DNA from: Nitrospirota bacterium
GTDB lineage: Bacteria; Nitrospirota; Nitrospiria; SBBL01; JAADHI01
Length of the DNA stretch: 64,000 nucleotides
Direction of reading: 5' to 3'
Assembly (NCBI GenBank): GCA_029261165.1
Contig: JAJDBV010000045.1
Coordinates: 13,271 to 77,270 of the forward strand
Shown: positions 28,158 to 44,067 of the stretch, one piece after another
How the letters are laid out: every line of letters begins with the position of its first letter
How positions within the stretch are numbered: the stretch's first letter is position 1
Translations under genes and position numbers: made by a program
Notes under the pieces: generated by a model
Databases searched by the model: none
Seen by the model: the letters and a program-made list of their open reading frames with translations, nothing else
What the model was told of the DNA's origin: nothing

Positions 28158-28233
28158 GATTCTATCCTCCTTGATTGAAATGACGGGCATCCATGCCCGA
28201 TTGTTTTGAGAGCTTTGTCCTCTCGTGCTTACA
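28158..28233 (-). promoter_or_regulatory. Flagellin 5' leader with three GGA (CsrA-type) sites
   Basis: RNA sense. Hairpin GAGAG-GACAAAG-CUCUC (28224-28208). Hairpin CGGGCA-UGGA-UGCCCG (28199-28184), with GGA in the loop. AAGGAGGA overlaps the SD (28172-28165). Confidence 0.5.
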
Positions 28234-28239
28234 GTAGTC

Positions 28240-28266
28240 TTATCGGATCAGGGATGAGAAACTTGA
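28240..28266 (-). promoter_or_regulatory. Sigma-28-type promoter of flagellin
   Basis: The minus strand reads TCAAGTTT (28266-28259), an 11-nt spacer, then TCCGATAA (28247-28240). Confidence 0.7.
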
Positions 28267-28385
28267 GGGGAAATGGACCGGTGGGTGGTCAAAGAATGAT
28301 GAAAAAATGAAAAATTACCTCATTATCTTGAAATCTTATGGAACTATTTAGGAGAATAGGTTGAAGGGGATTAGAAAGCAGGTGG

Positions 28386-28501
28386 ATAGGCTGAAGGCTG
28401 AAGGTTAAACCCGGCAGTTCCTTCGCGTCGTCGGACGCGAAGGTTTTGAGTTTTGTATGATCACGTATTATTTTCCTAATAGCCCTCAGCCTTCAGCCTA
28501 T
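28386..28501. repeat. Nested inverted repeat: 19-nt arms (18/19) enclosing a 10-bp GC hairpin
   Basis: The outer arms are ATAGGCTGAAGGCTGAAGG (28386-28404) and CCCTCAGCCTTCAGCCTAT (28483-28501). The inner hairpin is CCTTCGCGTC-GTCG-GACGCGAAGG (28420-28443). On the plus strand it is followed by TTTTGAGTTTTG. Confidence 0.6.
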
Positions 28502-28505
28502 TCAC

Positions 28506-28943
28506 CTAAGTCTCTTTGATCACCGGTTCGCGAACGTCGTAGCCGGCATCATAAAGGATGATCTGCTTCCCCTTTCGGGTCTCGGCGTTAATGACAAGGG
28601 GCGCCTGGAGATTTGCGGTCAGCTTGAGTGGATCGTCGTGCGGAATGGTCAGAATCGCCAATATCATCAGGGCACCGGCATCGGGGGTCTCAAGGCCCTG
28701 AAGGTCTTCTTTTCGAAGCGTGGGCCGGTAATCGGACTTAAAGATAAGCGGATCCATGACCGCGAAGGCCAGTTCAGGATCTTCCATGGCCTGGAGCCAG
28801 AAGAAGGGATGTCCTTTATCCTTTTCAACCAGGATATAGCGTTTCTCGATCGGGAATCCCAGTATACCTTCCGGGAAATCAATGAGACGGTCTGCTTCAA
28901 CATCCAGGCGGCCCAATTTCCTGCTTTCGATGACAATGCTCAC
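28506..28943 (-). CDS. fliW: Flagellar assembly factor FliW (CsrA antagonist)
   Basis: 145 aa with 'IDFPEGILGFP', 'FFWLQAMEDPELAFAVMDP' and 'LTANLQAPLVIN'. Confidence 0.9.
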   Translation of the reverse strand: MSIVIESRKLGRLDVEADRLIDFPEGILGFPIEKRYILVEKDKGHPFFWLQAMEDPELAFAVMDPLIFKSDYRPTLRKEDLQGLETPDAGALMILAILTIPHDDPLKLTANLQAPLVINAETRKGKQIILYDAGYDVREPVIKET

Positions 28944-28946
28944 GGT

Positions 28947-29207
28947 TTACTCTCCTTTTCCATGTTCCGGTCGTATGTCCTTCACGATCTCCCTCCCCAG
29001 GATATCCTCGAGCTTCTCGGGATGGAGATCGGCCGCATCCTTGTTCTCACGCATGATCCTGGAGAGAACCTCCTCCCGATGTACGGGCACACCGGGGGGC
29101 GCCTCGATTCCCAGCTTCACTTTCCCGCCTTTCACTTCGATGACCACCACCCTGATTTGATCTCCGAGGGTAATCGCTTCTCCGAGTTTTCGTGTTAGGA
29201 CCAGCAT
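28947..29207 (-). CDS. csrA: Carbon storage regulator CsrA with a C-terminal extension
   Basis: 'MLVLTRKLGEAITLGDQIRVVVIEVKGGKVKLGIEAPPGVPVHREEV' followed by an approximately 35-aa tail. Confidence 0.95.
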   Translation of the reverse strand: MLVLTRKLGEAITLGDQIRVVVIEVKGGKVKLGIEAPPGVPVHREEVLSRIMRENKDAADLHPEKLEDILGREIVKDIRPEHGKGE

Positions 29208-29260: not shown

Positions 29261-32200
29261 CTAATGTGAGGAGATCTTGACATTTTGATAGCGTTCCTTA
29301 ATCAGTTTAATTCGCCTTTCAATCTCCGGATCGAAAAATCCGGTGTTGTAAATCGCTTCCAGCGTCGGGAGAGATTCTTCTCCCGTAAAATAGGACGAGA
29401 AGGCCCGGGCTTTCTCTCGCTGATCCAAAATGCTCGCAAAAAGCCATTCCGCCAGGCGCTCACCAGGATCGATTGCTGCATATTCATCCGATAAGGGCAG
29501 GAAGGGCTCATTGATTTCAATCTCCCCTCCCTTTTCAAAGAGGGCAAATATCTGGTTGAGCAGATGAACCGCGGACTCACGTTTTCCCAGTTCAATCATG
29601 ACCCGACTTAAAGATAAAAGTCGGGGGAGTGTTGCCTTTGCCTTGGCCAACATTACAAGAATACCGTAGGAGGTTTCCAGGGAAGCGTATCGTACTTCTG
29701 CCGTGCGTCCTGCGTCCTTTGCCCTTGCATATAGATTCAGGGCAATCCAATAGGACTCCCATTCTTCTAAATTTGAAGGAACAGTGATCCAGTGCTCAAT
29801 CAATGCAGATGCATAGGGAAACGACTTGAGATAGCCCTGCCAATCCTTTATGTGTGTCCCGGGGAGATCAGAAGCCGGCGCGGCTTTTCGGACCAAGACG
29901 CCCTGTTTCTCCAGGAGGTCCGCACGGTCTCCTTTACAGAAGAACAGATTGACGGCAAAGACATCCAGATCTTCATCTGTTGTAAAAGGAAGTAACAGGT
30001 TCACCCCTGGAACAAGACGATACGGATGATATTCAAGTTGTTTGAATTCGGATACCAATTGTGTATCAACAATTTGATTATCCCGTCTAATACCAAACAT
30101 AATGAGAGGGGAATTTTGTGAGAAAAAACGCTTTCCACTTTGTAAAAATCCGGTATCTGTCGCATTTGTACTTATGCGGACAAAGTCAATTTCTTTCAAG
30201 CCCTGGAATTTCATTTCCGAGTCAAGAAAGAGTGTCCGGTCTCCTTTTACCATAAGGCACAGGTTATCCAGGGCATTATGCGCCTTACTCTTTTCCATAA
30301 AGCGCGCCTCTTTCTCCGTTTTTGTCGTTGCCCACAACCGGCCTTTCCCGCCTACCTTTTTTGCCAGGGGGATCGCATAAGCGCCCACGCCTGTACAAAT
30401 GTCTAGCAATTGCATGCCCGGCTGAATCAAATTCAGCACGAATCCGTGTTCGGGATCAAACCAGCCTTCCTGTTCCCTTAGAATATAGGTGTTGATTTCC
30501 TCGAGTGTGCCTTCTACCGCAATGTCTACCCCTCCTCGGACCGGAATGTATTGGACTGCCTTCTCCTTTGTCTCGGGAATCACAGGAGATTCAGGGAATT
30601 TCCTTTTCCATCCTTCGATGTAGGCGGCTTCCACCTGTTTTGTTAAGTGTATCGGGTCGCACAGAACGGAACTGCTCAAGCTCTCAGGAATGGTGCGATG
30701 AAGTTCAGCAATTCTGGCCGGATTACTTGCCAGCGCGACTGCTTTCTCGACGTATTCTTCTTCGCTAAAAGCAATCAAGTCCTTAAGGTCAATGCCGATA
30801 TTGCTAAGAACCGAGTAGGAAATGCGATGCGGACAGATGTCACCGACCAGGGTGACCACCGAAACCCCCATCCAAAGGGCATCCATTGTTGTCGTTCCGC
30901 CTGTTAAGGGAAAGGTATCTAACATGATGTCAATGTCGTTGTAATAACGCAGATAACTGCCTTTGGGATGCGTCTTCCAAACGATGTCAATGCGCTGCCC
31001 ATCAATGCCGTGTTTGGAAAACTCCTTGAGGATGTTAATCCTTGTCACTTCCATCTCGCAGTTGGGGTGATTGATGATCATTCTGGAATCAGGGATGCGT
31101 TTCAGAATTTGGCTCCAGACATAGATCAGCTCCGGGCTTAACTTATAGGTACTGTTCAGTGAACCAAAAGTAATAAACCGATTTCGTTCAAAGGGGATGA
31201 CCTTTTCAATGGCCTGTTCGAACAGTCTGGACATGGTACATGATATGTGAGGCAGACGAAGTTGTTGTTCAGTAAAATACTTTGCATTGTCAGGGCCATC
31301 CATATAAGGATCGGTGACAAAATAGTCAACAGCGGGTAAGCCCGAGGTGTAAGGGTAGCCAATATACATCATCTGAACAGGGGCGGGGCGATAACTCAGA
31401 GCCCCGAGTCTGCCGTGTTGGGTGTATCCTGCCAGGTCAAGAAGGAAATGGATGCCATCCGAATGGATCCGTTCCGCCAATTGACGGTCGGACAATTGGC
31501 TCACGTTTACAAAGATATCGGCCGCTTCCCGGTATTGCGCGGTGATGTCATCTTCAAGTTCAAGCTTTGTACTCGAGTAGCAATAAACCTCGAAACGATC
31601 TCTGTCATGGTTGTTAATGAGTCCCCGAACAAAGGTACTCACGCTGTGCCGACGAAAGTCGGGTGAAAGATACCCCACGCGCCAACGGGGCGTGGGGTGC
31701 ATCGCCTCTTCATGGGTTTCATAGGCTGGACGCTCCCGGAGGGCTTCAATGGTCTTTCCCGTCATCTTGTGAACATCTAAAAGCGATGCATGACTGATGC
31801 CCACAGTTGCCAATAGGAGCAGGTTAATATTCTCAAAGGAACTTATCGTGGTGCTGTTTTGAGATATTAACTTCATTATTTCGGGAAGGGACTTTTTTGC
31901 CTCTTCCCAGAGGCAAAAATTCTTGGCGCTCGCATATGCGGTAAAAAGCGCCAGGCCCGGGTGCGGCAAGCTTACGATATGATAAGTGAGTTTCAGCATT
32001 TCTTTCTTATTTCCAGTGAGTTTTTCCCAAATGAGCAGGTTTGAAAGAATATCCGGATTGTCTGGGTAACTGCTCAGTGCCTGTCGATAGTATTTCATAA
32101 CGTCTTGAGGTTTATTTTTTCTGGAAGCAATGACCCCGAGGTTGTTGAGGCTAATGACGTTATTTGGGTCGATGGCCAATACTTTATGAAAAATATTTTC

Positions 32201-32572
32201 TGCCTCATCGTTCTGTGTCCTGGAAAGATAAGTAATTCCCAAGTTGACCAAGCCGTTTACATGGGCAGGATCAATCTCACTCACTCTTTTAAAGAAGCTT
32301 CCCGCCGTAAGGGTGTCTCTGTCGTGTTCCAGACAGACCATCCCGAGGTAATTGAGGGCGTCCGGGTGGTTCGGGTTGAGGGAGAGTATCTGTTTGAACA
32401 ATGTGCGGCTTTTTTCATAGTCCTTTTCCACGAGATAAATGGAACCGAGCAGGATGAGCGTTTCTATTCGATTCGCTTCCCTGGAAAGAATCTTCCGGCA
32501 AAGTTTTTTGGCTTGCTCTAATTGGCCTGCTTTGGCAGATTGGTTTGCCTTCTTTTGCAAGGTTTCGATCAT
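29261..32572 (-). CDS. Multidomain TPR + GT41-type glycosyltransferase + FkbM-type methyltransferase + C-terminal helical-repeat protein (FlmG-like putative flagellin glycosyltransferase)
   Basis: N-terminal TPRs ('LNPNHPDALNYLG', 'IDPAHVNGLVNLG', 'IDPNNVISLNNLG'). SPINDLY/GT41-like core ('RVGYLSPDFRRHSV', 'LDLAGYTQHGR', 'FGSLNSTYKL', 'LDTFPLTGGTTTMDALWMGV'). SAM-MTase segment ('LLDICTGVGAYAIPLAKKVG'). The start at 32572 lies 2 nt after the upstream stop; 32608 is an alternative. Confidence 0.8.
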   Translation of the reverse strand: MIETLQKKANQSAKAGQLEQAKKLCRKILSREANRIETLILLGSIYLVEKDYEKSRTLFKQILSLNPNHPDALNYLGMVCLEHDRDTLTAGSFFKRVSEIDPAHVNGLVNLGITYLSRTQNDEAENIFHKVLAIDPNNVISLNNLGVIASRKNKPQDVMKYYRQALSSYPDNPDILSNLLIWEKLTGNKKEMLKLTYHIVSLPHPGLALFTAYASAKNFCLWEEAKKSLPEIMKLISQNSTTISSFENINLLLLATVGISHASLLDVHKMTGKTIEALRERPAYETHEEAMHPTPRWRVGYLSPDFRRHSVSTFVRGLINNHDRDRFEVYCYSSTKLELEDDITAQYREAADIFVNVSQLSDRQLAERIHSDGIHFLLDLAGYTQHGRLGALSYRPAPVQMMYIGYPYTSGLPAVDYFVTDPYMDGPDNAKYFTEQQLRLPHISCTMSRLFEQAIEKVIPFERNRFITFGSLNSTYKLSPELIYVWSQILKRIPDSRMIINHPNCEMEVTRINILKEFSKHGIDGQRIDIVWKTHPKGSYLRYYNDIDIMLDTFPLTGGTTTMDALWMGVSVVTLVGDICPHRISYSVLSNIGIDLKDLIAFSEEEYVEKAVALASNPARIAELHRTIPESLSSSVLCDPIHLTKQVEAAYIEGWKRKFPESPVIPETKEKAVQYIPVRGGVDIAVEGTLEEINTYILREQEGWFDPEHGFVLNLIQPGMQLLDICTGVGAYAIPLAKKVGGKGRLWATTKTEKEARFMEKSKAHNALDNLCLMVKGDRTLFLDSEMKFQGLKEIDFVRISTNATDTGFLQSGKRFFSQNSPLIMFGIRRDNQIVDTQLVSEFKQLEYHPYRLVPGVNLLLPFTTDEDLDVFAVNLFFCKGDRADLLEKQGVLVRKAAPASDLPGTHIKDWQGYLKSFPYASALIEHWITVPSNLEEWESYWIALNLYARAKDAGRTAEVRYASLETSYGILVMLAKAKATLPRLLSLSRVMIELGKRESAVHLLNQIFALFEKGGEIEINEPFLPLSDEYAAIDPGERLAEWLFASILDQREKARAFSSYFTGEESLPTLEAIYNTGFFDPEIERRIKLIKERYQNVKISSH

Positions 32573-32574
32573 TT

Positions 32575-33339
32575 TCACTGAACCCTCCGTAACCATGCCC
32601 CTGGCCAATAGGTGACCCTTTCGGTGATCTTCCCCTCATTGAAGGGGAAAGAGGGTTCTTCAATCACAAAGTTAGGGTTGGATGCGACAAAGACCTCGGC
32701 GGCGGCCCTTGGATTGTTCCATGACCAGTCTTTATTGCTCCGGGGCGCGCCAACCAGATCTCCCATGATCCCATCTGCTGCGATGATGTAAGAGCCGACC
32801 GAAACCAGGGTGGAATATGCACGGAGCTCAGACAAGACGTGCGCTTTTGTATGATTGGAATCGAGCATCACCAGAACCTTCTCATCCGATTTTACCTTCG
32901 AGGTCACCTTTTCTATGATTTCTAGGTCAATTGAGCTTCCTTCCACTAAGGTAATGTATTCAAATAATTCATGTGCCTCGATAGCTTCACGGTTATGTGG
33001 TCGTATTTCTACATCAATTCCGATCACGCGTCCGCGTCCCATGGCCTTGCACAGGCTTGCATAAAATATAAGGGAACCGCCGTGCGCAACCCCCGTCTCA
33101 ATAATCACGTCAGGTTTTACCTGATAGATGACCTCTTGAATCCTGAACATATCCTCTGGCAACTGAATCATCGGCCGGCCAAGCCAGGAGAAGCCGTAGA
33201 CATATTTATTATCCCAACCACTTCTTAACCAAGCGCCGGAAATAATAGAAAACGCCTCAGGCGTTCCGATGGGATGCGTCTCAGATTCATTCCCGTTTTC
33301 TAGAACAACGATGCCCTTTTCTACGTCAATTTTAATCAT
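32575..33339 (-). CDS. CmcI (cephalosporin hydroxylase)-family class I methyltransferase, sugar O-methyltransferase-like
   Basis: 254 aa with 'FSWLGRPMIQLPEDM', 'PDVIIETGVAHGGSLIFYA' and 'LVMLDSNHTKAHVLSEL'. Confidence 0.75.
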   Translation of the reverse strand: MIKIDVEKGIVVLENGNESETHPIGTPEAFSIISGAWLRSGWDNKYVYGFSWLGRPMIQLPEDMFRIQEVIYQVKPDVIIETGVAHGGSLIFYASLCKAMGRGRVIGIDVEIRPHNREAIEAHELFEYITLVEGSSIDLEIIEKVTSKVKSDEKVLVMLDSNHTKAHVLSELRAYSTLVSVGSYIIAADGIMGDLVGAPRSNKDWSWNNPRAAAEVFVASNPNFVIEEPSFPFNEGKITERVTYWPGAWLRRVQ

Positions 33340-33421
33340 GGTGGCTCAGTGCTCCCGTAATTAAATACTTGGTTATTGTGTCTCATTCTTGCGATGAAAA
33401 TGGATCGCCTAAACCAACCCT

Positions 33422-34582
33422 TTAATGAACGGGCTGTTCACTGAATAAAATACCCTTTAATGCGCTGCAAACATATCTGACTTTTTCTTCGGTTAAATTT
33501 AGACCGGATGGAAGGTTTATCCCATACCGGCTAATTTCATGCCCCACTTTATTACGACGGCGTGCATGTTGGGACTGTTCTAGATCTTTATAGGCCGGAA
33601 TAAAACTCAAAGGACGAAAGAACGGACGGCAGTCAATGCTTTTTTCATTCATTAACCCGATGAAACGATCTTTATCCATGCCGAACTTTGGATCGAGGAT
33701 CATTGTGATCATCCAGTAGGTATTTTTGGTGCTGGTCGCCTCGTTATTCAATGTCACATCTTTGAGGTCGACCAATTCCCTTTGATACCAGGAGAAGATC
33801 TGGCGCCTGCGGGCAAGCAGGTCTTCGATCCGCTCTAATTGTGCAAGTCCCAAGGCCGCCTGCAAACAGCTCATTTTATATTTATAGGCGATCTCTGTGT
33901 TCCGGTACATTTTGTCGCCCGGTTTGCGACCATGGTCACGCAAGAACATGGCACGGTCATATAGATCTTTTCGATCCGTCACCAGCATTCCACCCTCACC
34001 GGTGGTGATGGTTTTTGATCCATGGAAGCTAAAGACGCCCGTGTCTCCAAAGGAACCCGCCTTCTTCCCCTTGTACTCCGACCCCACGGCCTCGGCGGCA
34101 TCTTCGATGACCGCAATTCCGTATTGTTTTGCGAGATTCCGTATGGCGTCCATTTCCGGCATATTGCCGTAGAGGTCGACTGGGATAACGGCTTTCGTCT
34201 TTTTCGTGATACATTCCTCAAAGGATTGAGACGATAAACACCAGGTCCTGGAGTCAATATCGGCAAAGACCGGTGTTGCACCTACATGGGTAATCGGTGC
34301 AGCGGAGGCAATCCATGTTACATCCGGAACAATCACTTCATCGCCCGGGCCGATGCCAAGTGCCAACAGAGAGAGGTGAATTGCCGAAGTACAAGAAGGC
34401 AGGGAGATTGAAAACCGAACACCAATATAATCTGAAAAAGCCTTTTCAAAACGTTCATGGTAGATGTTTGCATTGGCATACCAGGCATTCGAAACGGCAT
34501 CGGTCACATAGTCAATTTCTTTTTCCGTAATCCAGGGACCGGATATTGGAATTCTTTCAAGGGGCTGTCCCAAAACCGTCAT
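33422..34582 (-). CDS. DegT/DnrJ/EryC1-family PLP-dependent sugar aminotransferase
   Basis: 'GPGDEVIVPDVTWIASA', 'VIEDAAEAVGSEYKGKKAGSFGDTGVFSFHGSKTITTGEGGML'. The ATG at 34582 gives an ATGA overlap with the upstream gene; the longer listed ORF is rejected. Confidence 0.85.
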   Translation of the reverse strand: MTVLGQPLERIPISGPWITEKEIDYVTDAVSNAWYANANIYHERFEKAFSDYIGVRFSISLPSCTSAIHLSLLALGIGPGDEVIVPDVTWIASAAPITHVGATPVFADIDSRTWCLSSQSFEECITKKTKAVIPVDLYGNMPEMDAIRNLAKQYGIAVIEDAAEAVGSEYKGKKAGSFGDTGVFSFHGSKTITTGEGGMLVTDRKDLYDRAMFLRDHGRKPGDKMYRNTEIAYKYKMSCLQAALGLAQLERIEDLLARRRQIFSWYQRELVDLKDVTLNNEATSTKNTYWMITMILDPKFGMDKDRFIGLMNEKSIDCRPFFRPLSFIPAYKDLEQSQHARRRNKVGHEISRYGINLPSGLNLTEEKVRYVCSALKGILFSEQPVH

Positions 34583-35340
34583 GATAAATCCTTTATACAA
34601 TTCAAGTATCCATCCGGAGCAGCTGTAATCAGGAGCTTGCTCTCGACTGTCTTGTCGATGACAAACCGGTCGTTGGCCTTCAGGAATTCCCATACGGCAG
34701 TCTTTGGGTTATTCCCTTTCCCCCAGGGACGATCCGGAAAGAAATCCTCCGGCATGTCTTCTATGATTGTGTCAAATACGACGAGGTAACTCCCTTTGGT
34801 GACCAGCGGCGAGTAGCGATTCAGCTCCTTGAGTACATGCGCGTGCGTGTGATTCGAATCCAGAATCAACAACACCGGGTTTTTCCCTCGGGCAAAATCA
34901 CAAACCTTTTTAACCGTATCTTCGTCGGTTGAAGATCCCTCGATCATTTTAATCCGCTTGCAGAGGGGGTGTTTTTCAATTTCACCACGATTATGCTCAC
35001 GAATATCGATATCAATACCTAAAACTTGTCCGTTTCCACCAAGCAGCTCAAGCATCGAAGCATAAAAGACAAGAGATCCTCCGTGGGCAATGCCGGTTTC
35101 TATGATCAAATCCGGCTGAACCTTCCAAATGATCTCCTGCATTCCGAGAACGTCTTGAGGGAGCTGGATAAGCGGCCTTCCCAGCCAAGTGAAATTGTGC
35201 GCATATTTATGCTGTGTAACCTCCTTTACCCAGTGCGTAGAGAGGTCTTGTATCTCTCGGTCGGCCTCCATGCCTTGAATGTGCTCCGATACTTCGCGGA
35301 AATGTTTTTCGATCTCGTTCATTTCAAGAATTCTTTCCAA
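34579..35340 (-). CDS. Second CmcI-family methyltransferase, paralog of 32575-33339
   Basis: 253 aa with 'FTWLGRPLIQLPQDV', 'PDLIIETGIAHGGSLVFYA' and 'LLILDSNHTHAHVLKEL'. Colinear with the other copy. Confidence 0.75.
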   Translation of the reverse strand: MERILEMNEIEKHFREVSEHIQGMEADREIQDLSTHWVKEVTQHKYAHNFTWLGRPLIQLPQDVLGMQEIIWKVQPDLIIETGIAHGGSLVFYASMLELLGGNGQVLGIDIDIREHNRGEIEKHPLCKRIKMIEGSSTDEDTVKKVCDFARGKNPVLLILDSNHTHAHVLKELNRYSPLVTKGSYLVVFDTIIEDMPEDFFPDRPWGKGNNPKTAVWEFLKANDRFVIDKTVESKLLITAAPDGYLNCIKDLS

Positions 35341-36035
35341 TAAACCGTTCCGGAATGGATCATTTTCCCTCCCTCTTTCCCGCGATTGGCGATCAAGTCC
35401 AGGATGGACACATGTGGGTTGAAGGCCCCGTACAGCTGAGGATAGGGTGTTCTTCGGTACTTCATGTATTCAACGTGTATTTTGTTCTTCTCAAAAACTG
35501 CATGGTCCAGGTAGTTTTTTGCGCCATGGCCCGTAATATAAACATCGCCCCCGGCTTTCTTCACGGTGTTGACAACTCTTTGGCTGCTTTCCCCGCCGAC
35601 TCCCATATGAGAAGAATATCGAAACTCCCGTCCCTCGCAAAGGCCAAAGTAACGGCACACTTCTAGGAGACCTGCGACCACGATATCAATCAGTTTCCTT
35701 TCTTCATTCCGGTACACTTTTTCTACGACTGCAATCATCTCGTCCTTATAGGGGGCGCGTCGGTAAGTCTGCGCCAGGAATGTCAGGTGTTGGTTTCTCC
35801 AGTCTTGTTCATCATCCGTAAGAACCTCTAGAATTGCTTGTCCCAACCGTTGCTTGTAGAGCGGGATGGTTAACCATTTGAATCCATCGGAGGTTTTTAT
35901 CTGAACACGGTTAACAAAGCTCCCCTTAGAGAACTGTACATCGTCGTAGTGCACATATGTGTCCGCAAGCCGGATCTGCTCAAACATTCCGACCCATGGG
36001 AAGAACATTGGCTGAGAGATAATGATACGCTTCAC
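35319..36035 (-). CDS. WbqC-family protein (sugar-modification cluster protein of unknown mechanism)
   Basis: 'IISQPMFFPWVGMFEQIRLADTYVHYDDVQFSKGSFVNRVQIKT' is the typical WbqC N-terminus. Confidence 0.75.
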   Translation of the reverse strand: MKRIIISQPMFFPWVGMFEQIRLADTYVHYDDVQFSKGSFVNRVQIKTSDGFKWLTIPLYKQRLGQAILEVLTDDEQDWRNQHLTFLAQTYRRAPYKDEMIAVVEKVYRNEERKLIDIVVAGLLEVCRYFGLCEGREFRYSSHMGVGGESSQRVVNTVKKAGGDVYITGHGAKNYLDHAVFEKNKIHVEYMKYRRTPYPQLYGAFNPHVSILDLIANRGKEGGKMIHSGTVYWKEFLK

Positions 36036-36538
36036 AGGTGTTTTTCCATCATCATCACGTCCAGATACTTCCCCTGCTGTCGGTGGTGGCGGGTATAAAA
36101 TCCGACCCTGGAATACCCTGAGCGTTCGTAAAATGCGATCACATTATTCCGGTGTGCAAGCACTTTCAGAATGACCTTTCGAAGGCTGAGCTCCTTTTGT
36201 ACGTATTCCTCGAACAACCGAAGTGCTTCGCTACCATACCCTCTGCCCTGGAAGTCATCGTCCAGCAGAATGCCTAGCTCGCCCGTTCCATCCATAAAAT
36301 CGATGTTCACCAATTGGATATAGCCGCACGGAAGATCGCCAGACTTCTCTGCAATGATGAAAAATAGGGAACACGCATCACCGAGCCGTCGCTCCAACCA
36401 CTCCGTAACCATTGCAGAGGTGTTGGTCCGGGGACGTGCCATGACCTTGTGCTGCAATTCCGTGTTGTTTCGCATGGAGATCAGAGAACCCTTATCTTTT
36501 TCTTGAGGCAATCTTAGAATGATCTTGCATCCATTCAA
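36032..36538 (-). CDS. GNAT-family N-acetyltransferase
   Basis: 168 aa with 'QGRGYGSEALRLFEEY', the acetyl-CoA-binding Q/RxxGxG/A motif. 4-nt overlap with the next gene. Confidence 0.75.
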   Translation of the reverse strand: MNGCKIILRLPQEKDKGSLISMRNNTELQHKVMARPRTNTSAMVTEWLERRLGDACSLFFIIAEKSGDLPCGYIQLVNIDFMDGTGELGILLDDDFQGRGYGSEALRLFEEYVQKELSLRKVILKVLAHRNNVIAFYERSGYSRVGFYTRHHRQQGKYLDVMMMEKHL

Positions 36539-36555
36539 TACTGGATCTCCCTGTA

Positions 36556-37713
36556 CTACAAGAAAAAATAATGAATCTTACGACCGTTCCATGCCTCGAC
36601 CCTGTCGATGTTGACCTGAGCAATTTTGGGATTCAGGCCCACATAAACCACATCAATATCTGGGTCAAGTTTTTCCGGTCCTAAGATCGGCTTTTCGAAT
36701 AAGACCTTCCCCTTTCGAAAAGAACTTTGATCGATGAAGCTAGTAACTTTTTTGGGGGCAGACAGACAACTCAGGATGAAACTGCCGTAAAAGCCTGATC
36801 CATAAATTGCGACATTTGACCTGTCCGCGTAGGCCTGCTCAAACGTCTTCACCTTGTGGGACAAATCCTGCCAGAAAGCCCCTACCTCTCTCATTCTCTC
36901 TTGTACGTCAGTAACCTGATGCTCCCAGTCCGGGCAGCGTTCTTCTGATATGTCAGCCTTTCGGGCGACAATGACGAAGGCGCCGCGGTGAATTTCTCCG
37001 TCTATCTCCAGCGGGTCAAAACCAACCTTGCTCAGCAAGTACCGGATCGACGTTTCGGTGAAATGATTCACATGATCCACGACGACGTAGTCTGCGATAT
37101 TGGTAAATACATTAGGGACGATGATGTAGCATAAGCCCTCAGGTTTCAGGAATGATCGGATTTTGGTGAGCATGGAATGAGGATCCCCCACGTGCTCCAG
37201 AGAGAAGAAAGAAGTGACTACATCAAACAGGCCTGTCCACTTCTTATTGGGTTCATAGGTTGCCCAATGTTCAGGTTGAGCAAACTTTTCCCAGAACGGG
37301 ACGTACATCTCGCTGACATCAAAAAGGTGCGGCGTAATGTCGGGGCGGGTCTGGATGAGACGCCTGAGCATGCTGCTCTTGGCACAACCATAATCTAATA
37401 CGCGTGCCCCCTCTGGCAGGGAGACTTTGCTGATGAGGGTCTGCATCTGGTGCTCGACCCGATAGATCTTTTTGCTCTCCCTTATTTCGTAAAGCTGGTC
37501 TTCTTCTTCGCTGTCGGTGAGGATTTTGTACGTTGTATCATAATACGCGTCCAGTCCCGTGACCTCAGTGGTTTGAAGATGTCCGCAGCGATCACACAGG
37601 AAGACTTCTGTTTTTCCCTGGTAAATATCGCATAGAGATGTGATGGAAGTGGCGCCATCGGAGCGATACACTGGTGCTTTAAGAGAAGATCTGCAGATAT
37701 TACATGTGGACAT
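36556..37713 (-). CDS. Zn-ribbon + class I SAM methyltransferase + C-terminal domain (C-methyltransferase-like paralog)
   Basis: N-terminal 'CNICRS...CDRCGHLQT' (CxxC...CxxC). SAM motif 'VLDYGCAKSS'. The architecture parallels the 438-aa enzyme at 39172-40488. Confidence 0.65.
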   Translation of the reverse strand: MSTCNICRSSLKAPVYRSDGATSITSLCDIYQGKTEVFLCDRCGHLQTTEVTGLDAYYDTTYKILTDSEEEDQLYEIRESKKIYRVEHQMQTLISKVSLPEGARVLDYGCAKSSMLRRLIQTRPDITPHLFDVSEMYVPFWEKFAQPEHWATYEPNKKWTGLFDVVTSFFSLEHVGDPHSMLTKIRSFLKPEGLCYIIVPNVFTNIADYVVVDHVNHFTETSIRYLLSKVGFDPLEIDGEIHRGAFVIVARKADISEERCPDWEHQVTDVQERMREVGAFWQDLSHKVKTFEQAYADRSNVAIYGSGFYGSFILSCLSAPKKVTSFIDQSSFRKGKVLFEKPILGPEKLDPDIDVVYVGLNPKIAQVNIDRVEAWNGRKIHYFFL

Positions 37714-37730
37714 CGGTTTCCTTTCCTAAG

Positions 37731-38576
37731 TCAGCCCGCCATGAGGTCAGGATGAACATGTTCCAGAGCGACTTCGGAAGAAGATGCGCCACACCAGCCA
37801 ATCTGGATTCCCGTCGGATCGAGAAAATTAAAATACCGAAGCTGCATCGACCACCGCGATCGTATTCCCTGATTGATACCGGAGGCATGTACCACAAGGA
37901 AATCAATAAGAACAAGGTCTCCAGGCTCCGTCAAGGGTGCAACAGGAGGATAGTTCAAGATAATTTCCCTTTCCCTCTCTAATATCAGTCCGTACGCGCC
38001 CGTTTTTTCGGGATTTTTAGGGTCGTTTCGACGAATGCTCAGGAGTCCCTCCTTGTGTGAACCGATGCAGAAGTTGACCGGGCCGAGAGACTCGGTGACT
38101 TGTAGCAATGGACTCCAGAAGGTGACCCCATCGAGACTGCGAAACTGTGCTGGATATTCCTGATGCCACCTTGCCCGATACCTTTCTTCCCCTGGATTGT
38201 CGATACGGATTCCGTATCCGCAGGCTGCGACTCCGGGCATATCCGTCGCCCTGAGTTGGCTCATGAGAGATTCCAGTCGGGAAGACGCAACCAACCTCAA
38301 AAATGCAGGAATCTGCTTGACGGCGTCATACATCTCGCCGCCATACCTGCGGTTCATGGCGATCAACTCTTGGTACCCGGAATCGAATGTTTGGGGGGTG
38401 AAAGCCTGCTGTTCAATCGGCAAGCGATATTTTGTGATGAGAATCTGAATGATTTTGTAGACGGCAAACTGGATTGGCTCGATTTCCTGCTTCAAATCAA
38501 AGAACGATTTGATGAGTAAAACGCCATCCTCATGAAACGTATCAATTTGTTCGGCGGTCAGCATGTTTTTATTCAC
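37731..38576 (-). CDS. Phytanoyl-CoA dioxygenase (PhyH)-family Fe(II)/2-oxoglutarate oxygenase
   Basis: 281 aa. N-terminus 'LTAEQIDTFHEDGVLLIKSFF'. 'WHQEYP' and 'VVHASGIN' fit the His-x-Asp/Glu...His facial triad pattern. Confidence 0.7.
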   Translation of the reverse strand: MNKNMLTAEQIDTFHEDGVLLIKSFFDLKQEIEPIQFAVYKIIQILITKYRLPIEQQAFTPQTFDSGYQELIAMNRRYGGEMYDAVKQIPAFLRLVASSRLESLMSQLRATDMPGVAACGYGIRIDNPGEERYRARWHQEYPAQFRSLDGVTFWSPLLQVTESLGPVNFCIGSHKEGLLSIRRNDPKNPEKTGAYGLILEREREIILNYPPVAPLTEPGDLVLIDFLVVHASGINQGIRSRWSMQLRYFNFLDPTGIQIGWCGASSSEVALEHVHPDLMAG

Positions 38577-39168
38577 TCGTTAACTTATCCTGAAATGTCT
38601 TCGTTTTTTCTGTCTCTTCTTGAGACTTAGAGAATAAACTGTATGACCCATCCTGTTTTGACATGGTGATTTCTGTCAATGGCCATTCAATGGCAAATGT
38701 CGGATCATTCCATCGGATTCCTTTTGCAGATTCCGGACGATAGAATGCTGACATCTGGTAAGAAGCCTCCGCGTTATCGGACAAAGACTGAAAACCGTGA
38801 GCAAAGCCTTCCGGAACATAAAGCATCTTATAGTTTTCAGCATCTAACTCCACTGAAAACCATTGGCAATAAGTAGGAGAATCGGGACGAAGATCAATGA
38901 TGACATCATAAATCGTGCCCTGTATACATCGGACCAGCTTTGCTTCCTCATGAGGCTTCATCTGATAATGCATCCCGCGCAGCGTTCCCCTTTTTTTGTT
39001 ATAGGAGGTATTGCATTGTACGATATTAAATGGGATTCCGTGGGCCTCAAACTCTTCTCGACAGAATGTCCGCGCAAAGGAACCGCGTTCATCTTCTATC
39101 GGATCGATCTCAATGATGTAGGCCCCTTTTAGTTTGGTTTCCTTAAATATCATTGCTTGTATGGGCAC
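38569..39168 (-). CDS. NDP-4-keto-6-deoxyhexose 3,5-epimerase (RfbC/RmlC family)
   Basis: 'DERGSFARTFCREEF', 'QCNTSYNKKRGTLRGMHYQ', 'KLVRCIQGTIYDVIIDLR' and 'LYVPEGFAHGF'. Confidence 0.85.
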   Translation of the reverse strand: MPIQAMIFKETKLKGAYIIEIDPIEDERGSFARTFCREEFEAHGIPFNIVQCNTSYNKKRGTLRGMHYQMKPHEEAKLVRCIQGTIYDVIIDLRPDSPTYCQWFSVELDAENYKMLYVPEGFAHGFQSLSDNAEASYQMSAFYRPESAKGIRWNDPTFAIEWPLTEITMSKQDGSYSLFSKSQEETEKTKTFQDKLTSE

Positions 39169-39171
39169 CTC

Positions 39172-40488
39172 TCACAGAACCGTCACTTCCGGGATCGGCA
39201 CCACAAACGCTCCGCCCCATTCCCGAATGAAGGCCATCTGATTCATGATCTCATCCTTGAGATTCCAGGGCAGGATGAGGAGATAGTCCGGTTTGGTTTC
39301 TCTGATCTTCTCAGGAGGGTAGATCGGGATATGTGTTCCCGGAAGAAAAAGACCCTGTTTGTGCGAACTTCGATCGACTGTATAGTTCAGCATTTCCGAA
39401 TCAATCCCGCAATAGTTTAACAGGGTGTTCCCCTTTGCGGGGGCCCCGTATCCGGAAATGGTCTTTCCTTGTTGTTTAATCATCATGAAGAATGCCAATA
39501 ATCTTTTCCTTGTCTCGCGCACTTTCTCATTAAAAGGGAAGTAGGTCTCTAATTGGTCCAATCCATTTTTTTTCTCTTTCTTTCTCAACCGGGTGATCGT
39601 CTGGCTGATCCTTTTGTTTCGATCATCTTGATGGCATGCATAAATCCGAAGAGATCCCCCGTGTGAACTTAATTCTTCTACGTCAAACAAAACCAAGGCA
39701 TGGTTGGAAAAAATCTTTTCCACGGTGAGAAGTGACAGGTAAGAAAAGTGTTCGTGGTAGATCGTATCGAACTGATTCTCCTCCATTAAGCGTAACAAAT
39801 GGGGAAACTCCATGGTGATCACACCACCGGGTTTGAGTATGATCTTCAGGCCCTGGATAAAATCATTCAGGTCCGGAACATGGGCCAACACATTATTTCC
39901 CACCAGAAGGTCGGCACCGGAGCCATCTTGTCTTATCTCTCTGGCCGCCCTAGACCCAAAGAATGTCACCCGCGTTGGAATGCCCCTAGCCTTTGCGACC
40001 GCTGCCACATTTTCCGCCGGTTCAATGCCCAAGACAGGGACTCTCTTTTTCTGGAAATATTGAAGGAGGTAGCCGTCGTTACTGGCAATCTCAACTACCT
40101 GATGTTTTAGTCCGAGTCCAAACCGCTTTATCATCTCTTCGGTATATCTCTTTGCATGCCTGAGCCAACTGTCGGAGGTGGATGAAAAATAGGCGTAGTC
40201 TTGAAAAATTTCTTCGGGGCTTTGAAATTCCTGTAATTGCACGAGATAGCAACACTCACAGACATAGGCATGTAAAGGGTAGAAGGGTTCCAACTGTGAC
40301 AACTGTTCCCGTTTGATGAAGGCATTCGAGAGCGGCGCCATGCCGAGATCACAGAACGAGTGTTCCAGGGCGGTCCCGCAAAACCTGCATTGACTGGAAT
40401 TTAGACACGTTCCAGATTTTGGCAGCATGTAATCTGGTGCGTTGTTAATTGACGCATGTCTGCTTTTTTTTGAAACATTTTGTACCAT
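39172..40488 (-). CDS. NDP-hexose C-methyltransferase (TylCIII-like: Zn-binding domain + SAM MTase + C-methyltransferase C-terminal domain)
   Basis: 'CRFCGTALEHSFCDLGMAPLSNAF...LHAYVCECCYLVQL', 'VVEIASNDGYLLQYF', 'VLAHVPDLNDF' and 'GYGAPAKGNTLLNYCG'. Confidence 0.8.
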   Translation of the reverse strand: MVQNVSKKSRHASINNAPDYMLPKSGTCLNSSQCRFCGTALEHSFCDLGMAPLSNAFIKREQLSQLEPFYPLHAYVCECCYLVQLQEFQSPEEIFQDYAYFSSTSDSWLRHAKRYTEEMIKRFGLGLKHQVVEIASNDGYLLQYFQKKRVPVLGIEPAENVAAVAKARGIPTRVTFFGSRAAREIRQDGSGADLLVGNNVLAHVPDLNDFIQGLKIILKPGGVITMEFPHLLRLMEENQFDTIYHEHFSYLSLLTVEKIFSNHALVLFDVEELSSHGGSLRIYACHQDDRNKRISQTITRLRKKEKKNGLDQLETYFPFNEKVRETRKRLLAFFMMIKQQGKTISGYGAPAKGNTLLNYCGIDSEMLNYTVDRSSHKQGLFLPGTHIPIYPPEKIRETKPDYLLILPWNLKDEIMNQMAFIREWGGAFVVPIPEVTVL

Positions 40489-40496
40489 TCAACAAC

Positions 40497-41476
40497 CTAC
40501 TCCATGGTAGTCTCAAGAGATATTTTGGGTGACCAGTCTAAGCAGATCTTTGCCTTAGACGAATCGAGCTTGAGGAGAGCGGCTTCATGTGGCTGTTGCG
40601 AAATCTCCATCTCCCAACACACCTTATGGCCCCATGCGTGCATTAAATAGTCAGCGACTCAGGATACCGGTCTGGCGTCTTCCCGTCTTGGTCCGAAGTT
40701 CAATCCCTCCCCAAATTTTGGACCTTCCTCCCACAGTTTTTCAGCAAGGCTCAGGTATCCGTCTAACGGCTCAAGCACGTGCTTCCAATGACGTACCGCT
40801 TCAGGATATCGAAGAATAATCGGTCGATCTTTCATGAGGGCAGTCATCATATCGGGAACAAGCCGGTCCTCTGCCCAGTCTCCTCCACCGACGACATTGC
40901 CCGCCCGGGCCGTTGCCACTTCGACGCCATTGCTGAAGCCATCGGCCTTTGAAAAGGAGTAATTCCGATACGCGCTTGTGATCAATTCGGAACACCCCTT
41001 GATGCTTGAGTAGGGGTCAAGGCCATCGGATCCGTTTCATTATAGCGAATATCCTGATCCCGATTTTCGTAGCATTTGTCGCTTGTGATATTCACGACAA
41101 CCCGGACATTTTTCGCAAGGCGGATCGCCTCCAAGAGGTTCACTGTCCCGATCACATTTGTTGTATATGTTTCAACCGGGTCCTTATGGGAGGATCGGAC
41201 CAGAGACCGTGCGGCCATATGGATCACGATTTCAGGTTGATGCTCTGATAATATCGATCTTAAAAAAGAAAGATCGCGTAGATCTCCCTCTAACGAAACC
41301 ATACCGCCGGAGACGCCAGCCACTTCAAACAAACTTGGACGGGTAGGAGGGGGGAGCGAATAACCGACAACATGTGCCCCTAGATTTTGTATCCAGAGAG
41401 ACAACCAGCTTCCCTCAAATCCGGTATGTCCGGTGATGAAGACCTTTTTATCTCTCCAGAATTCCGGAGTCATCAC
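40497..41476 (-). pseudogene. rfbG: CDP-glucose 4,6-dehydratase (RfbG/DdhB type) disrupted by one frameshift and one in-frame TGA
   Basis: There are three colinear pieces. 41476-40982 has 'KKVFITGHTGFEGSWL...ITSDKCYEN...ETDPM', then the frame is lost near 41019-41027. 40985-40659 has 'DPYSSIKGCSELITSAYRNYSF...' up to 'RPVS' followed by TGA (40658-40656). The same frame continues with 'VADYLMHAWG...PHEAALLKLDSSKAKICLDWSP' to the TAG at 40499-40497. Confidence 0.8.
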
Positions 41477-41645
41477 CAGGTCCTCTCTTTACATGCAGTA
41501 CAGTAACGATCCAGGGTGCCTGGATAAAGCTTCAGGGCAAGGCGTGAGGAATGCAGAACCGCAGCGCATTTTCTATACGTGAGGATTCGAGTACCATAGC
41601 AACGCAGCCATGGAGCCTTAGACAGGTTGCCTGAGTCGTTACGCA

Positions 41646-42413
41646 TCACCAGACCTTCCAGGGGGCCTTGCCGCTATTCCAAAGGGCTTCTATCCTTTTC
41701 CTATCCCGGAGCGTATCCATCGGTTGCCAGAACCCCTTATGCTGGTATGCCGACAGGTTCCCTTCACTTGCCAGCCGTTCCATCGGCTCCAGTTCCCATG
41801 GTGTTTCATCACCCTCAATGTAATCGATGACATTCGGAGATAGGACAAAAAAACCACCGTTTATCCAAGCCCCGTCGCCTTGAGGTTTTTCCAAAAACCC
41901 ACTCACCATGTCTTTTTTCATCTTCAATGCGCCGTAGCGGCCGGGTGGCTGGACCGCCGTTACTGTGGCGAGTGACTTTTTATCCTTGTGATATTTCACC
42001 AGATTTCCGATGTTGAGGTCGGCCACACCATCGCCATAGGTGAAGCAAAAATCTTTCTTCCCCAAATAATCACGAACCCTTTTTAATCGACCGCCTGTCA
42101 TGGTCCGCTCACCGGTATCGACCAAGGTGACGCGCCAGGGCTCAACATGGTTCTGATGGACTTCCATTTTATTATGGGCCATATCGAAGGTTACATCCGA
42201 CATGTGAAGAAAATAATTGTTGAAATACTCTTTAACAAGATAACCTTTGTATCCAAGGCAGATGATAAAATCATTGATGCCGTAAGTAGAGTAGCTCTTC
42301 ATGATGTGCCACAGGATCGGTTTTCCGCCGATCTCGATCATTGGTTTAGGTTTGACATGCGTCTCCTCACAGATCCGCGTTCCCAGGCCTCCGGCCAGTA
42401 TAACCGCTTTCAA
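41646..42413 (-). CDS. rfbF: Glucose-1-phosphate cytidylyltransferase (RfbF/DdhA)
   Basis: '[40 protein letters not shown]...[14 protein letters not shown]' and '[11 protein letters not shown]'. Confidence 0.9.
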
Positions 42414-42473
42414 GGGCTTCTCCTCATTCAGGACAGGGACACTCTGGCTTCCTTGTCTTGCACTTAGCTTTAA

Positions 42474-42489
42474 TGCAATAAACTTGCCA
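42474..42489 (-). promoter_or_regulatory. Near-consensus sigma-54 (-24/-12) promoter upstream of rfbF and the sugar island
   Basis: The minus strand reads TGGCAA-GTTTA-TTGCA, against consensus TGGCAC-N5-TTGCW. It is about 60 nt upstream of the rfbF ATG. Confidence 0.65.
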
Positions 42490-42806: not shown

Positions 42807-44030
42807 TTATCGGAGGAAGTCTAAAAGGGATCTCTGGATGAGCTTGGCAAAGGTGGCCCGCGTTGCTTCAAGGACGTTCTGCTGTTGTACGAGGTCGGAA
42901 ATCGCACGGGTAATGTCGACATTTTCCCGTTCGGATTTAAATGTCGCCAGGGTGAGCCTAAGATCCTCCAACATCGACCCATCTGTTTCCGCACGCTTGA
43001 GTCTGGCCCCCAGCAAGGTCCGAGCATTGCTTATCTGGTCATCCGCTCTATCAAGGTTTGCCAGGGCGGTCTGGATGCCGTTGAGATCATTTGTTTCCAA
43101 TGCGGTTTGGAGTCCGCCCACCACTGCGAAAATATCAATTCCGCCGATCGTCCCTTTGAAGAGCCGATCGCCGGGGATGTTCTTGGTGATCGTTGCCCCC
43201 TCTCCGATCAGGACCTTGCTCTCTGCCGAATCTCCAAGATAAGTTCCTGACGGTCGATTGATCGCACCTCCGCCGGACGCAAGCCCCAATAGCGGCTCAG
43301 CCGTTCCGCCAGTGATATTCACATTCGACGCACCCCCCACTGCGGTTGACGTAATGACGAGGTGGTCCGTATCAAAGGTCCCGGTCACTGAGACCCCGGC
43401 TGTCTGAAAAGTCGCGTCTCCATTAATCGCGGTCTGTACGGCTGTCGCCAATTGGGTCCCCGTATAGGTTCCGGCAGCGATGGTCACATTACTGGATACA
43501 CCATCTACGGTGATGTCTAAGCCGTCATTGGCGACCGTAATCGTAATCGGGAGGGAGGGGGAGATGTCCGTTCCGATATACTCGCCTTTTGATACAAACG
43601 GAATTGTTGTGGTCTTGTTTCCTGCAAAGAGGGAATGTCCTGCGAGGGTTGCATTTCCCACGGAAATCATCTGGTCAAAGATCTGTTGCACTTCCTTGGC
43701 AACATTTGCGCGGTCCGCCGCAGAATTCGTGGCATTTGCCATCTGGACGGCCAACTCACGGACCCGAACCAGTTGGTTCTGAACGGTCTGGAGGGCAGAT
43801 TCACTCGTCGAAAGAAAAGATTCTAACTGGTTGATGTTCCTTAGATGCTGATCGACCGTCTCCAGGGATTTTTCAAAACGTAAGACCTGTGCCTGACCGA
43901 TCGGATCATCCGATGGGCGGTTGATCTTTTTTCCTGTGGAGACTTGCTCTTGTGTTTTAATTAGTGCCGTCGTCTGTCGTTGAAGCTGATTGGTGACGGA
44001 ATTAAAAAGCATACGCTCAGATACACGCAT
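42807..44030 (-). CDS. flgL: Hook-filament junction protein FlgL (HAP3)
   Basis: N-terminus 'MRVSERMLFNSVTNQLQRQTTALIKTQEQVSTGKKINRPSDDP'. C-terminus 'ISDLVQQQNVLEATRATFAKL'. Confidence 0.9.
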   Translation of the reverse strand: MRVSERMLFNSVTNQLQRQTTALIKTQEQVSTGKKINRPSDDPIGQAQVLRFEKSLETVDQHLRNINQLESFLSTSESALQTVQNQLVRVRELAVQMANATNSAADRANVAKEVQQIFDQMISVGNATLAGHSLFAGNKTTTIPFVSKGEYIGTDISPSLPITITVANDGLDITVDGVSSNVTIAAGTYTGTQLATAVQTAINGDATFQTAGVSVTGTFDTDHLVITSTAVGGASNVNITGGTAEPLLGLASGGGAINRPSGTYLGDSAESKVLIGEGATITKNIPGDRLFKGTIGGIDIFAVVGGLQTALETNDLNGIQTALANLDRADDQISNARTLLGARLKRAETDGSMLEDLRLTLATFKSERENVDITRAISDLVQQQNVLEATRATFAKLIQRSLLDFLR

Positions 44031-44067
44031 GAGGGTCCCCTTGATATTGTTTAATCACCGATTTTCT

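Follow-up and report, generated by a model that had tools for sequence, protein, structure and literature searches.

Flagellin glycosylation islands lying beside flgL or fliC are a known kind of locus in Pseudomonas and the Enterobacteriaceae, and in Pseudomonas aeruginosa the a-type island is found between flgL and fliC. The glycans carried by flagellin influence motility and the assembly of the filament as well as recognition by phages and immune systems, and to our knowledge nearly all of those characterised use nonulosonic acids or dTDP- or UDP-activated sugars. Here we describe an island of 12 genes (about 13 kb, positions 29,261–42,413 on the minus strand) between flgL and csrA in a 64,000-nucleotide stretch of contig JAJDBV010000045.1 from a Nitrospirota bacterium, referred to below as the window. 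The island adjoins the flagellin gene within the flagellar cluster and brings together a transferase of glycosyltransferase family 41 (GT41) and ten biosynthetic genes, one of which is a pseudogene. We think it probable that this is a flagellin O-glycosylation island of two modules, in which the dehydratase gene rfbG is dead and the rest still works by means of a dehydratase encoded elsewhere in the genome.

Among the described systems, the enterobacterial islands likewise carry variable cargo in the interval from fliC to fliA or flgL (De Maayer & Cowan 2016, PMC4875605). That survey reports fusions of a GT41 (SPINDLY-type) domain with a methyltransferase in 194 strains, together with DegT proteins and FkbM/AdoMet methyltransferases, and it includes an island type (type 23, four strains) with genes for CDP-4-keto-6-deoxy-D-glucose. 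For islands without rmlB it proposes that the dehydratase comes from elsewhere in the genome. The enterobacterial islands are, however, predictions only and belong to another phylum, the csrA-fliW context of the window sets it apart from them, and a term search of the survey returned no mention of a C-methyl branch or of WbqC (the terms did not include PhyH or the Zn-ribbon methyltransferase). The Pseudomonas islands share with the window the insertion site beside flgL and the presence of aminotransferase, methyltransferase and glycosyltransferase genes, and the flagellar locus of P. putida ITEM 17297 holds a WbqC-like gene (PMC7932912). They differ in that FgtA (PA1091, encoded in pa1088-pa1091 of strain PAO1) is a GT2 and not a GT41 enzyme (PMC11833859). 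Rhamnose or another deoxyhexose forms the base of the Pseudomonas glycans that have been characterised, together with viosamine or phospho-dimethylthreonine, and no CDP-hexose C-methyl pathway has been described for them.

The transferase in the window has TPR repeats and a GT41 domain with YK and GGTTT motifs, as do Arabidopsis SPINDLY and animal OGT (PDB 7y4i, 8dtf, 3pe3), which differ from it in being eukaryotic, in using GDP- or UDP-sugars and in having neither a fused methyltransferase nor a C-terminal helical domain. SPINDLY transfers fucose, a 6-deoxyhexose, to Ser/Thr. The layout of TPR and glycosyltransferase domains is also shared with Caulobacter FlmG, a soluble cytoplasmic flagellin O-glycosyltransferase whose N-terminal TPR domain binds flagellins and whose C-terminal GT-B domain is inactive without it; FlmG, however, has 596 residues, transfers pseudaminic acid, has no methyltransferase domain and is not a GT41 enzyme by the evidence obtained here (PMC7591256).

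Likenesses to the predicted sugar pathway are found in the branched deoxysugar pathways of mycarose (TylC3/TylK/TylC2), sibirosamine, the N-acyl kansosamine of M. kansasii lipooligosaccharide (LOS) and the CDP-vinelose of Azotobacter, in which a C-3 methyltransferase of the MtmC/TcaB9 family and an RmlC-type epimerase are followed by a 4-ketoreductase or else by a 4-aminotransferase, N-acyl and O-methyl groups also being added. In contrast to the island, these pathways use dTDP or an unknown nucleotide and serve antibiotics or glycolipids, and none has a PhyH, Zn-ribbon methyltransferase or WbqC protein. Kansosamine, a 4-acylamino-4,6-dideoxy-3-C-methyl-2-O-methyl-L-hexose, exemplifies the class of product predicted here, and sibirosamine is a further precedent for N-acylated, O-methylated 4-amino-4,6-dideoxy-3-C-methylhexoses. 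N-acyl kansosamine is a unique sugar of the LOS of M. kansasii (PMC4403928). The initial annotation of this DNA did not recognise the gene set as a described pathway, and this still holds: in an incomplete literature we found no paper linking the ten biosynthetic genes, or a CDP-based C-methyl-branched amino sugar, to flagellin or to a characterised pathway, and nothing relevant on 3-C-methyl sugars, CDP-glucose or Nitrospira combined with flagellin glycosylation. The kind of island, on the other hand, was already catalogued in the enterobacterial survey (PMC4875605).

Predicted enzymes of the island and the rfbG pseudogene

The first module would be a ten-gene cassette making a CDP-activated sugar, and the second would consist of a further CmcI-family methyltransferase (CmcI-b) and the TPR-GT41-methyltransferase protein (Table 1). 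In the proposed pathway RfbF would turn glucose 1-phosphate into CDP-glucose and RfbG would turn this into CDP-4-keto-6-deoxyglucose; the TylCIII-type enzyme would methylate C-3, the RmlC-type enzyme epimerise C-5 or both C-3 and C-5, the DegT protein transaminate C-4, the GNAT protein N-acylate the amino group and the CmcI enzyme O-methylate the sugar, with the PhyH oxygenase, the Zn-ribbon methyltransferase and the WbqC protein providing further steps.

The C-methyltransferase matches MtmC (PDB 4rv9) over its full length (E=7e-87), with KijD1 and TcaB9 as the other best solved relatives, and has all three parts: a Zn-binding N-terminal domain (PF08421), an S-adenosylmethionine (SAM) domain and a C-terminal PF08484 domain. 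The Zn-ribbon methyltransferase matches PF08421 only at E=0.07 and PF08484 not at all, and so falls outside the TylCIII/TcaB9 family; it has 1163 homologues, the best 120 of them at 46–62% identity, and residues C4, C7, C40 and C43 are invariant. The best solved relative of the DegT protein is the C-4 aminotransferase GDP-perosamine synthase (3bn1, E=5e-89), and the epimerase has RmlC as its solved relative. The two CmcI proteins, a and b, are 47% identical. WbqC has 2524 homologues at E≤1e-10, and its structure model, with a predicted local distance difference test score (pLDDT) of 93, gave no significant Foldseek match to solved structures; its sequence has no match in the PDB.

Profile searches against the model cutoffs found no nonulosonate synthase, no Maf and none of the nonulosonate equivalogs PseB/C/H/I and LegB/C in the island. 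This agrees with the initial annotation, which had noted the absence of Maf and Pse/Leg genes; DegT scores 313 against LegC (cutoff 420) and 269 against PseC (cutoff 423), and the GNAT protein likewise matches PseH only below cutoff. The same annotation had remarked on the lack of a 4-ketoreductase and proposed amination in its place. Indeed, no SDR-type ketoreductase is found in the island, and in related loci the C-methyltransferase/epimerase pair is followed in some cases by a reductase set and in others by a DegT set, the two never occurring together (13 loci), an exclusivity that supports amination replacing 4-ketoreduction. The reductase variant may resemble CDP-vinelose.

The product originally proposed was CDP-activated, C-methyl-branched, aminated, acylated and O-methylated. 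The genes for these steps are present, but the pathway as encoded here cannot run, the second step being represented by a pseudogene; because the dehydratase is dead, the pathway is not readable from the island in this genome. The frame of rfbG breaks at about 41021–41026, after ...NETDPM, where an invariant Gly-Gly stands ahead of the catalytic YxxxK, and there are two in-frame stops (TGA, 40659–40661; TAG, 40497–40499), both at positions held by Trp in most of ten relatives. Of 97 columns that nine relatives keep invariant, 11 differ in rfbG, including P230H and Q232K (RPWQHVLEP to RHWKHVLEP), S159I (the Ser of YSSSK, the YxxxK motif) and WNFGP to LNFGP, as against 11 of 457 in RfbF, the C-methyltransferase, the epimerase, CmcI-b and the GT41 transferase pooled (Fisher p=3.6e-4); the rate of change is 11% in rfbG and 0–3.5% in these five other genes. 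Among all fetched loci, RfbG orthologues are uninterrupted in 45 of 46, the exception (L117) aligning over 85% of its length without stops. Neither frameshifts nor premature stops are seen in the other eleven genes of the island (about 11.8 kb), as against three disabling lesions in the 1.07 kb of rfbG, and the island as a whole therefore still appears to be under selection. The earlier description of 12 tightly packed genes on one strand is correct as to the strand, whereas the packing is not uniform: rfbF and rfbG, which overlap in relatives, are separated here by a non-coding spacer of 169 bp (41477–41645), and flgL and rfbF by 393 bp. Neither spacer has repeats in the window or a match in the first 82 loci fetched.

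A different account would make the island a decaying relic, in which the loss of rfbG blocks the pathway, flagellin is unmodified or otherwise modified, and the other genes have not yet decayed. The three independent disabling lesions and 11 replaced invariant residues of rfbG, the 169-bp spacer that has no equivalent in relatives and the absence of a second dehydratase from the window all fit this account, but a lesion density like that of rfbG would predict about 30 disabling lesions for the remainder of the island, which is intact, and RfbF and CmcI-b have kept all of their invariant columns (0 of 68 and 0 of 55 changed, respectively), so that we regard a relic as rather unlikely. Still less credible is that errors of assembly or sequencing produced the rfbG lesions, in a metagenome-assembled genome (MAG) whose island is fully functional: the window does come from a metagenome-derived contig, the independent Logan contig L001 confirms it, by identity, only from cmcI-a through the flagellin gene, and an indel of 1–2 nt is a typical assembly error, but two nonsense substitutions and 11 replacements at otherwise invariant residues, confined to rfbG with its neighbours clean, are not an error pattern. 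As judged from the sequence, this is the real decay of one gene. On the reading of a working two-module island, the missing RfbG step would be supplied by another CDP-glucose 4,6-dehydratase whose gene lies outside the island, as has been proposed for the enterobacterial islands without rmlB (PMC4875605).

The transferase, the cassette and their neighbours in other bacteria

TPR_1, TPR_2 and other TPR families span residues 14–205 of the transferase, and for residues 278–670 the best solved relative is Arabidopsis SPINDLY (7y4i, E=2.5e-83), followed by animal OGT. The residues Y476 and K477 of the YK motif and G558-G559-T560-T561-T562 of the GGTTT motif are invariant in 16 full-length homologues, and we take K477 to be the equivalent of Lys842 in OGT. 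The last 426 residues were modelled with a pLDDT of 90; the first 215 or so adopt a class-I SAM methyltransferase fold and the rest is helical. The label FkbM that this part had been given was rejected, as there is no match to PF05050 at E≤1 and a fold search with the model returned only generic class-I methyltransferases; some distant homologues of the transferase do carry PF05050. As modelled, the protein is composed of TPR, GT41, methyltransferase-fold and helical domains and is not demonstrably an FkbM enzyme, the TPR and GT41 parts of the label being upheld. Apart from this and the dehydratase, the earlier gene labels agree with the family matches, and 11 of the 12 genes are intact. If the protein works as FlmG and SPINDLY do, flagellin would be bound in the cytoplasm by the TPR arm. 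The GT41 domain would attach the 6-deoxyhexose derivative to Ser/Thr residues in the core of the flagellin that is yet to be exported, and a methyl group would come from the fused methyltransferase-fold domain. In Nitrospira and Nitrospiria (L004, L005 and proteins P0002–P0008) a transferase of about 1,600–1,800 residues and a second GT41 protein of about 650 residues are found directly upstream of csrA-fliW-fliC, and the transferase module has evidently been expanded or duplicated in this lineage.

An alignment of the transferase family was scanned against one genome per species, the best genome-contig match being 51% identical, and the window proteins were mapped onto the fetched loci to read gene context. 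Flagellin lies downstream in all seven loci that have a close homologue of the transferase (44–59% identity) and enough downstream sequence (L002–L007 and L009, from MAGs of Nitrospira/Nitrospiria and of Gamma-, Beta- and Deltaproteobacteria), and is often reached via csrA-fliW. A core of rfbF, rfbG, C-methyltransferase and epimerase genes together with a GT41 homologue adjoins fliC/fliD/fliS or flgKL in L002, L005, L006, L009, L029, L046, L047, L052 and L062. The first of these repeats the layout of the window with a different middle: flgN-flgK-flgL is followed by rfbF, an intact rfbG, the C-methyltransferase, the epimerase, a hexapeptide acyltransferase, an SDR reductase, TylF, CmcI-b and the glycosyltransferase, and then by csrA-fliW-fliC-flaG-fliD-fliS-fliT. 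Copies of CmcI-b, 60–77% identical, adjoin the GT41 gene in L002, L005, L010, L011 and L017.

The cassette was sought through homologues of the Zn-ribbon methyltransferase and a metagenome scan, which gave 52 metagenome loci of at least 8 kb. Its order in the window and relatives is rfbF, dehydratase, C-methyltransferase, epimerase, PhyH, methyltransferase, GNAT, WbqC, CmcI-a and DegT. The Zn-ribbon methyltransferase co-occurs in these loci with PhyH (51), WbqC (51), DegT (48), CmcI-a (46), the epimerase (44), GNAT (44) and the C-methyltransferase (41), all three of PhyH, WbqC and the Zn-ribbon methyltransferase being present together in 51 of the 52, and CmcI-b is present in none. Collinear copies are found in Chamaesiphon minutus PCC 6605, in cyanobacterial contigs and in Paenibacillus aestuarii, and the RfbF orthologues of Chamaesiphon and Paenibacillus exceed the cytidylyltransferase cutoff (TIGR02623). 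In Paenibacillus TPR-containing glycosyltransferases precede the cassette and hpf-secA-prfB follow it, and a formyltransferase occupies the GNAT slot. PhyH and the second methyltransferase are kept where a formyltransferase replaces GNAT, and action of these two enzymes on the N-acyl chain is therefore unlikely. In Chamaesiphon (L087, CP003600.1) the epimerase slot holds a truncated remnant at about 8784–9137 (42% coverage, no gene called) among nine intact genes, which may be another case of single-gene loss within the cassette. To judge by these matches, the gene set occurs well beyond this genome and is a widespread cassette, present in Nitrospirota, Proteobacteria, Firmicutes and Cyanobacteria and, by named WbqC and methyltransferase homologues, probably in further phyla.

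Flagellar genes lie within 10 kb of the cassette in 13 of the 52 loci. The order flgK-flgL-cassette-fliC is seen in L124, L155 and L166, and flgL-GT41-cassette-fliC-flaG-fliD-fliS in L115. On the megaplasmid of Ralstonia wenshanensis 56D2 (CP076412.1) an eight-gene cassette without the C-methyltransferase and CmcI genes, plus two glycosyltransferase genes, is found between two fliE copies near fliT-fliS-fliD-flagellin. These annotated fliE genes (8055–8393 and 17667–17993 of L170) bracket the sugar island (about 1,377,000–1,386,200 of CP076412.1), an arrangement that points to duplication of the target gene on insertion. The association of this island type with flagellin genes is thus conserved in relatives, and the reading of the locus as one of flagellin glycosylation, already put forward in the initial annotation, gains support from synteny across phyla. 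Whether the island always abuts flagellin genes had also been raised there; this is so for the close GT41 loci with enough downstream sequence and is not so for the cassette.

The other setting of the cassette is the basis of a further alternative, namely that the sugar is destined for lipopolysaccharide, exopolysaccharide, an S-layer or pilin and that its position among flagellar genes is incidental. The Chamaesiphon and cyanobacterial copies are followed by a GT2/GT4 protein and adjoin housekeeping genes, with no flagellar genes nearby, and we know of no flagellated cyanobacteria. Such loci indicate that the sugar is not intrinsically flagellar. In 39 of the 52 loci flagellar genes are absent within 10 kb of the cassette. 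A bacterial GT41 enzyme is reported to be necessary for the glycosylation of a pilin (PMC9306852). In the window, however, the cassette is joined to a GT41 gene whose homologues directly precede flagellin in every informative locus, independent lineages have the complete cassette between flgL and fliC, and the island has the strand and orientation of the late flagellar genes, and we hold a non-flagellar target to be improbable here. The preferred reading, with flagellin as the acceptor, would make the island a mobile, widely used sugar cassette fused with a flagellin-directed GT41 module (CmcI-b plus the transferase).

A wider proposal concerns the conserved core, comprising RfbF, RfbG, the epimerase, DegT, PhyH, the Zn-ribbon methyltransferase, an acyl- or formyltransferase and WbqC; the C-3 methyltransferase and CmcI often join it. 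We suggest tentatively, with somewhat less than even confidence, that this core makes a CDP-activated sugar of undescribed structure, with at least one enzyme class of undescribed chemistry (WbqC), that the sugar is used in several phyla for flagellin and other surface glycoconjugates, and that it is transferred by GT41 enzymes from a CDP donor. We know of no report of a CDP donor for the GT41 family.

Promoter motif, flanks and significance

Between about 51,370 and 23,168 the minus strand carries an unbroken run of late flagellar genes, in which Pfam and NCBIfam matches give the order flgF, flgG, flgA, flgH, flgI, a rod-binding FlgJ-like gene, flgM, flgN, flgK, flgL, the island, csrA, fliW, flagellin, flaG, fliD, fliS and fliT. 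The flank assignments thus bear out the initial placement of the island between flgL and csrA. Proteins identical to those of the window are known only from NCBI and from a Logan assembly of SRR15505516, and exact-sequence look-ups of the 1115-residue transferase open reading frame (ORF), RfbF and the second methyltransferase gave no match. The GC content of the island (~0.48) is close to that of the window (~0.49); no compositional deviation is seen, and composition therefore gives no sign of recent transfer. An Rfam scan of the window at gathering thresholds gave no match, and sigma-70 and terminator scans of the window were at or below chance.

Table 1. Features of the island and its immediate flanks in the window.
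Feature	Positions	Strand	Evidence
flgK (44068–45717) and flgL (42807–44030), hook-filament junction proteins, upstream flank	42807–45717	minus	TIGR02492 404 bits and TIGR02550 255 bits, both above cutoff
Sigma-54-type -24/-12 motif TGGCAAGTTTATTGCA	42474–42489	minus	fits consensus; in the flgL-rfbF gap, 60 nt upstream of the rfbF start
rfbF, glucose-1-phosphate cytidylyltransferase, 255 aa, TTG start	41646–42413	minus	TIGR02623 468 bits (cutoff 300)
rfbG pseudogene, CDP-glucose 4,6-dehydratase	40401–41476	minus	frameshift and 2 in-frame stops; repaired translation 443 bits on TIGR02622
NDP-hexose 3-C-methyltransferase, TylCIII/MtmC/TcaB9 type, 418 aa from ATG at 40428	39172–40428	minus	PF08421 and PF08484
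RmlC-type 3,5-(or 5-)epimerase	38569–39168	minus	PF00908; TIGR01221 186 bits (cutoff 156)
PhyH-family Fe(II)/2-oxoglutarate oxygenase	37731–38576	minus	PF05721 E=4e-12
Zn-ribbon methyltransferase (ZnMT), second methyltransferase, 385 aa, N-terminal CxxC...CxxC	36556–37713	minus	PF13489 (Methyltransf_23)
GNAT N-acyltransferase, PseH-like but below cutoff	36032–36538	minus	PseH model 63 bits (cutoff 93)
WbqC-family protein	35319–36035	minus	PF08889 229 bits
cmcI-a, CmcI-family methyltransferase, cassette paralogue	34579–35340	minus	PF04989 306 bits
DegT-family pyridoxal phosphate aminotransferase, 387 aa from Met37 of the long ORF, predicted C-4 action	33422–34585	minus	PF01041
cmcI-b, CmcI-family methyltransferase, travels with GT41 in Nitrospirota and other flagellar islands	32575–33339	minus	PF04989 243 bits
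Glycosyltransferase with TPR, GT41 (SPINDLY/OGT-like), class-I methyltransferase-fold and C-terminal helical domains, 1103 aa from ATG at 32572 (long ORF 1115 aa)	29261–32572	minus	PF13844 188 bits (cutoff 25), TPR families
Downstream flank: csrA (28947–29207), fliW (28506–28943), flagellin (26715–28157), then flaG, fliD, fliS, fliT	23168–29207	minus	NCBIfam, Pfam

The near-consensus sigma-54 promoter reported initially is present as a motif upstream of the operon, with GG at -24, GC at -12 and the consensus spacing; most of the related loci lack an exact match. The core TGGCA-N6-TTGC occurs twice in the 64 kb, with 0.36 expected, and a count of two was reached in 3 of 100 shuffles. An exact match is also found in L006, 49 nt upstream of rfbF; in L002 flgL and rfbF are only 15 bp apart. 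Sigma-54 control of the island is plausible, though not established. The only other exact core match in the window, TGGCATACATATTGC (21926–21940, minus strand), is found a short distance ahead of the probable true start of a gene (20423–22090) for a response-regulator-like GGDEF diguanylate cyclase, and a motif with one mismatch, AGGCACTGAAGTTGCA (26216–26230, minus strand), is found on the coding strand in the flaG-fliD gap, upstream of fliD. A simple sigma-28 pattern gave no match upstream of fliC, flgK, flgM or fliD.

FlgL (residues 137–245) and FliD (residues 413–520; gene 24016–26031) share an inserted domain of about 110 residues that is 45% identical between them (BLASTP E=3e-18), contains TVDG...AAGTYT...LA..VQ..ING and is, we presume, probably of the flagellin hook IN type. 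The filament genes adjoin a cyclic di-GMP signalling block (13406–22631) encoding EAL-HDOD, HDOD, degenerate GGDEF, methyl-accepting chemotaxis, PilZ and GGDEF proteins and a stand-alone receiver domain. Within this span a 215-residue Arg/Ser-rich ORF (14938–15585, minus strand), on the strand opposite to its neighbours and without a Pfam match, is probably not a gene.

Several points weigh against the interpretation we favour. The committed dehydratase step is, on the evidence of the reading frame, a pseudogene, and neither a second dehydratase copy nor any other SDR is found within the 64-kb window. Most cassette loci lack nearby flagellar genes and the cyanobacterial copies use GT2/GT4 proteins, as set out above. 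The donor and acceptor of the GT41 enzyme and the modification of flagellin in this organism are predictions from the genes; glycosylation of FliD or FlgL, which had also been mooted, is pure speculation. The flagellin core is indeed rich in Ser and Thr, as first noted (Ser+Thr 28%, Ala+Gly 36%), but such cores are common and its composition, though real, is weak evidence. The sigma-54 motif is kept in only one of 13 other loci, the remaining twelve being without an exact match, and no rpoN or enhancer-binding protein was found among the window ORFs scanned, which excluded the chemotaxis block at 1–13,400.

This work defines a widely distributed ten-gene cassette, hitherto uncharacterised, for a CDP-linked and probably C-methyl-branched amino sugar. 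Three of its members, the PhyH oxygenase, the Zn-ribbon methyltransferase and WbqC, are without assigned chemistry, and the cassette is carried by the cultured organisms Ralstonia wenshanensis 56D2, Paenibacillus aestuarii and Chamaesiphon minutus PCC 6605.

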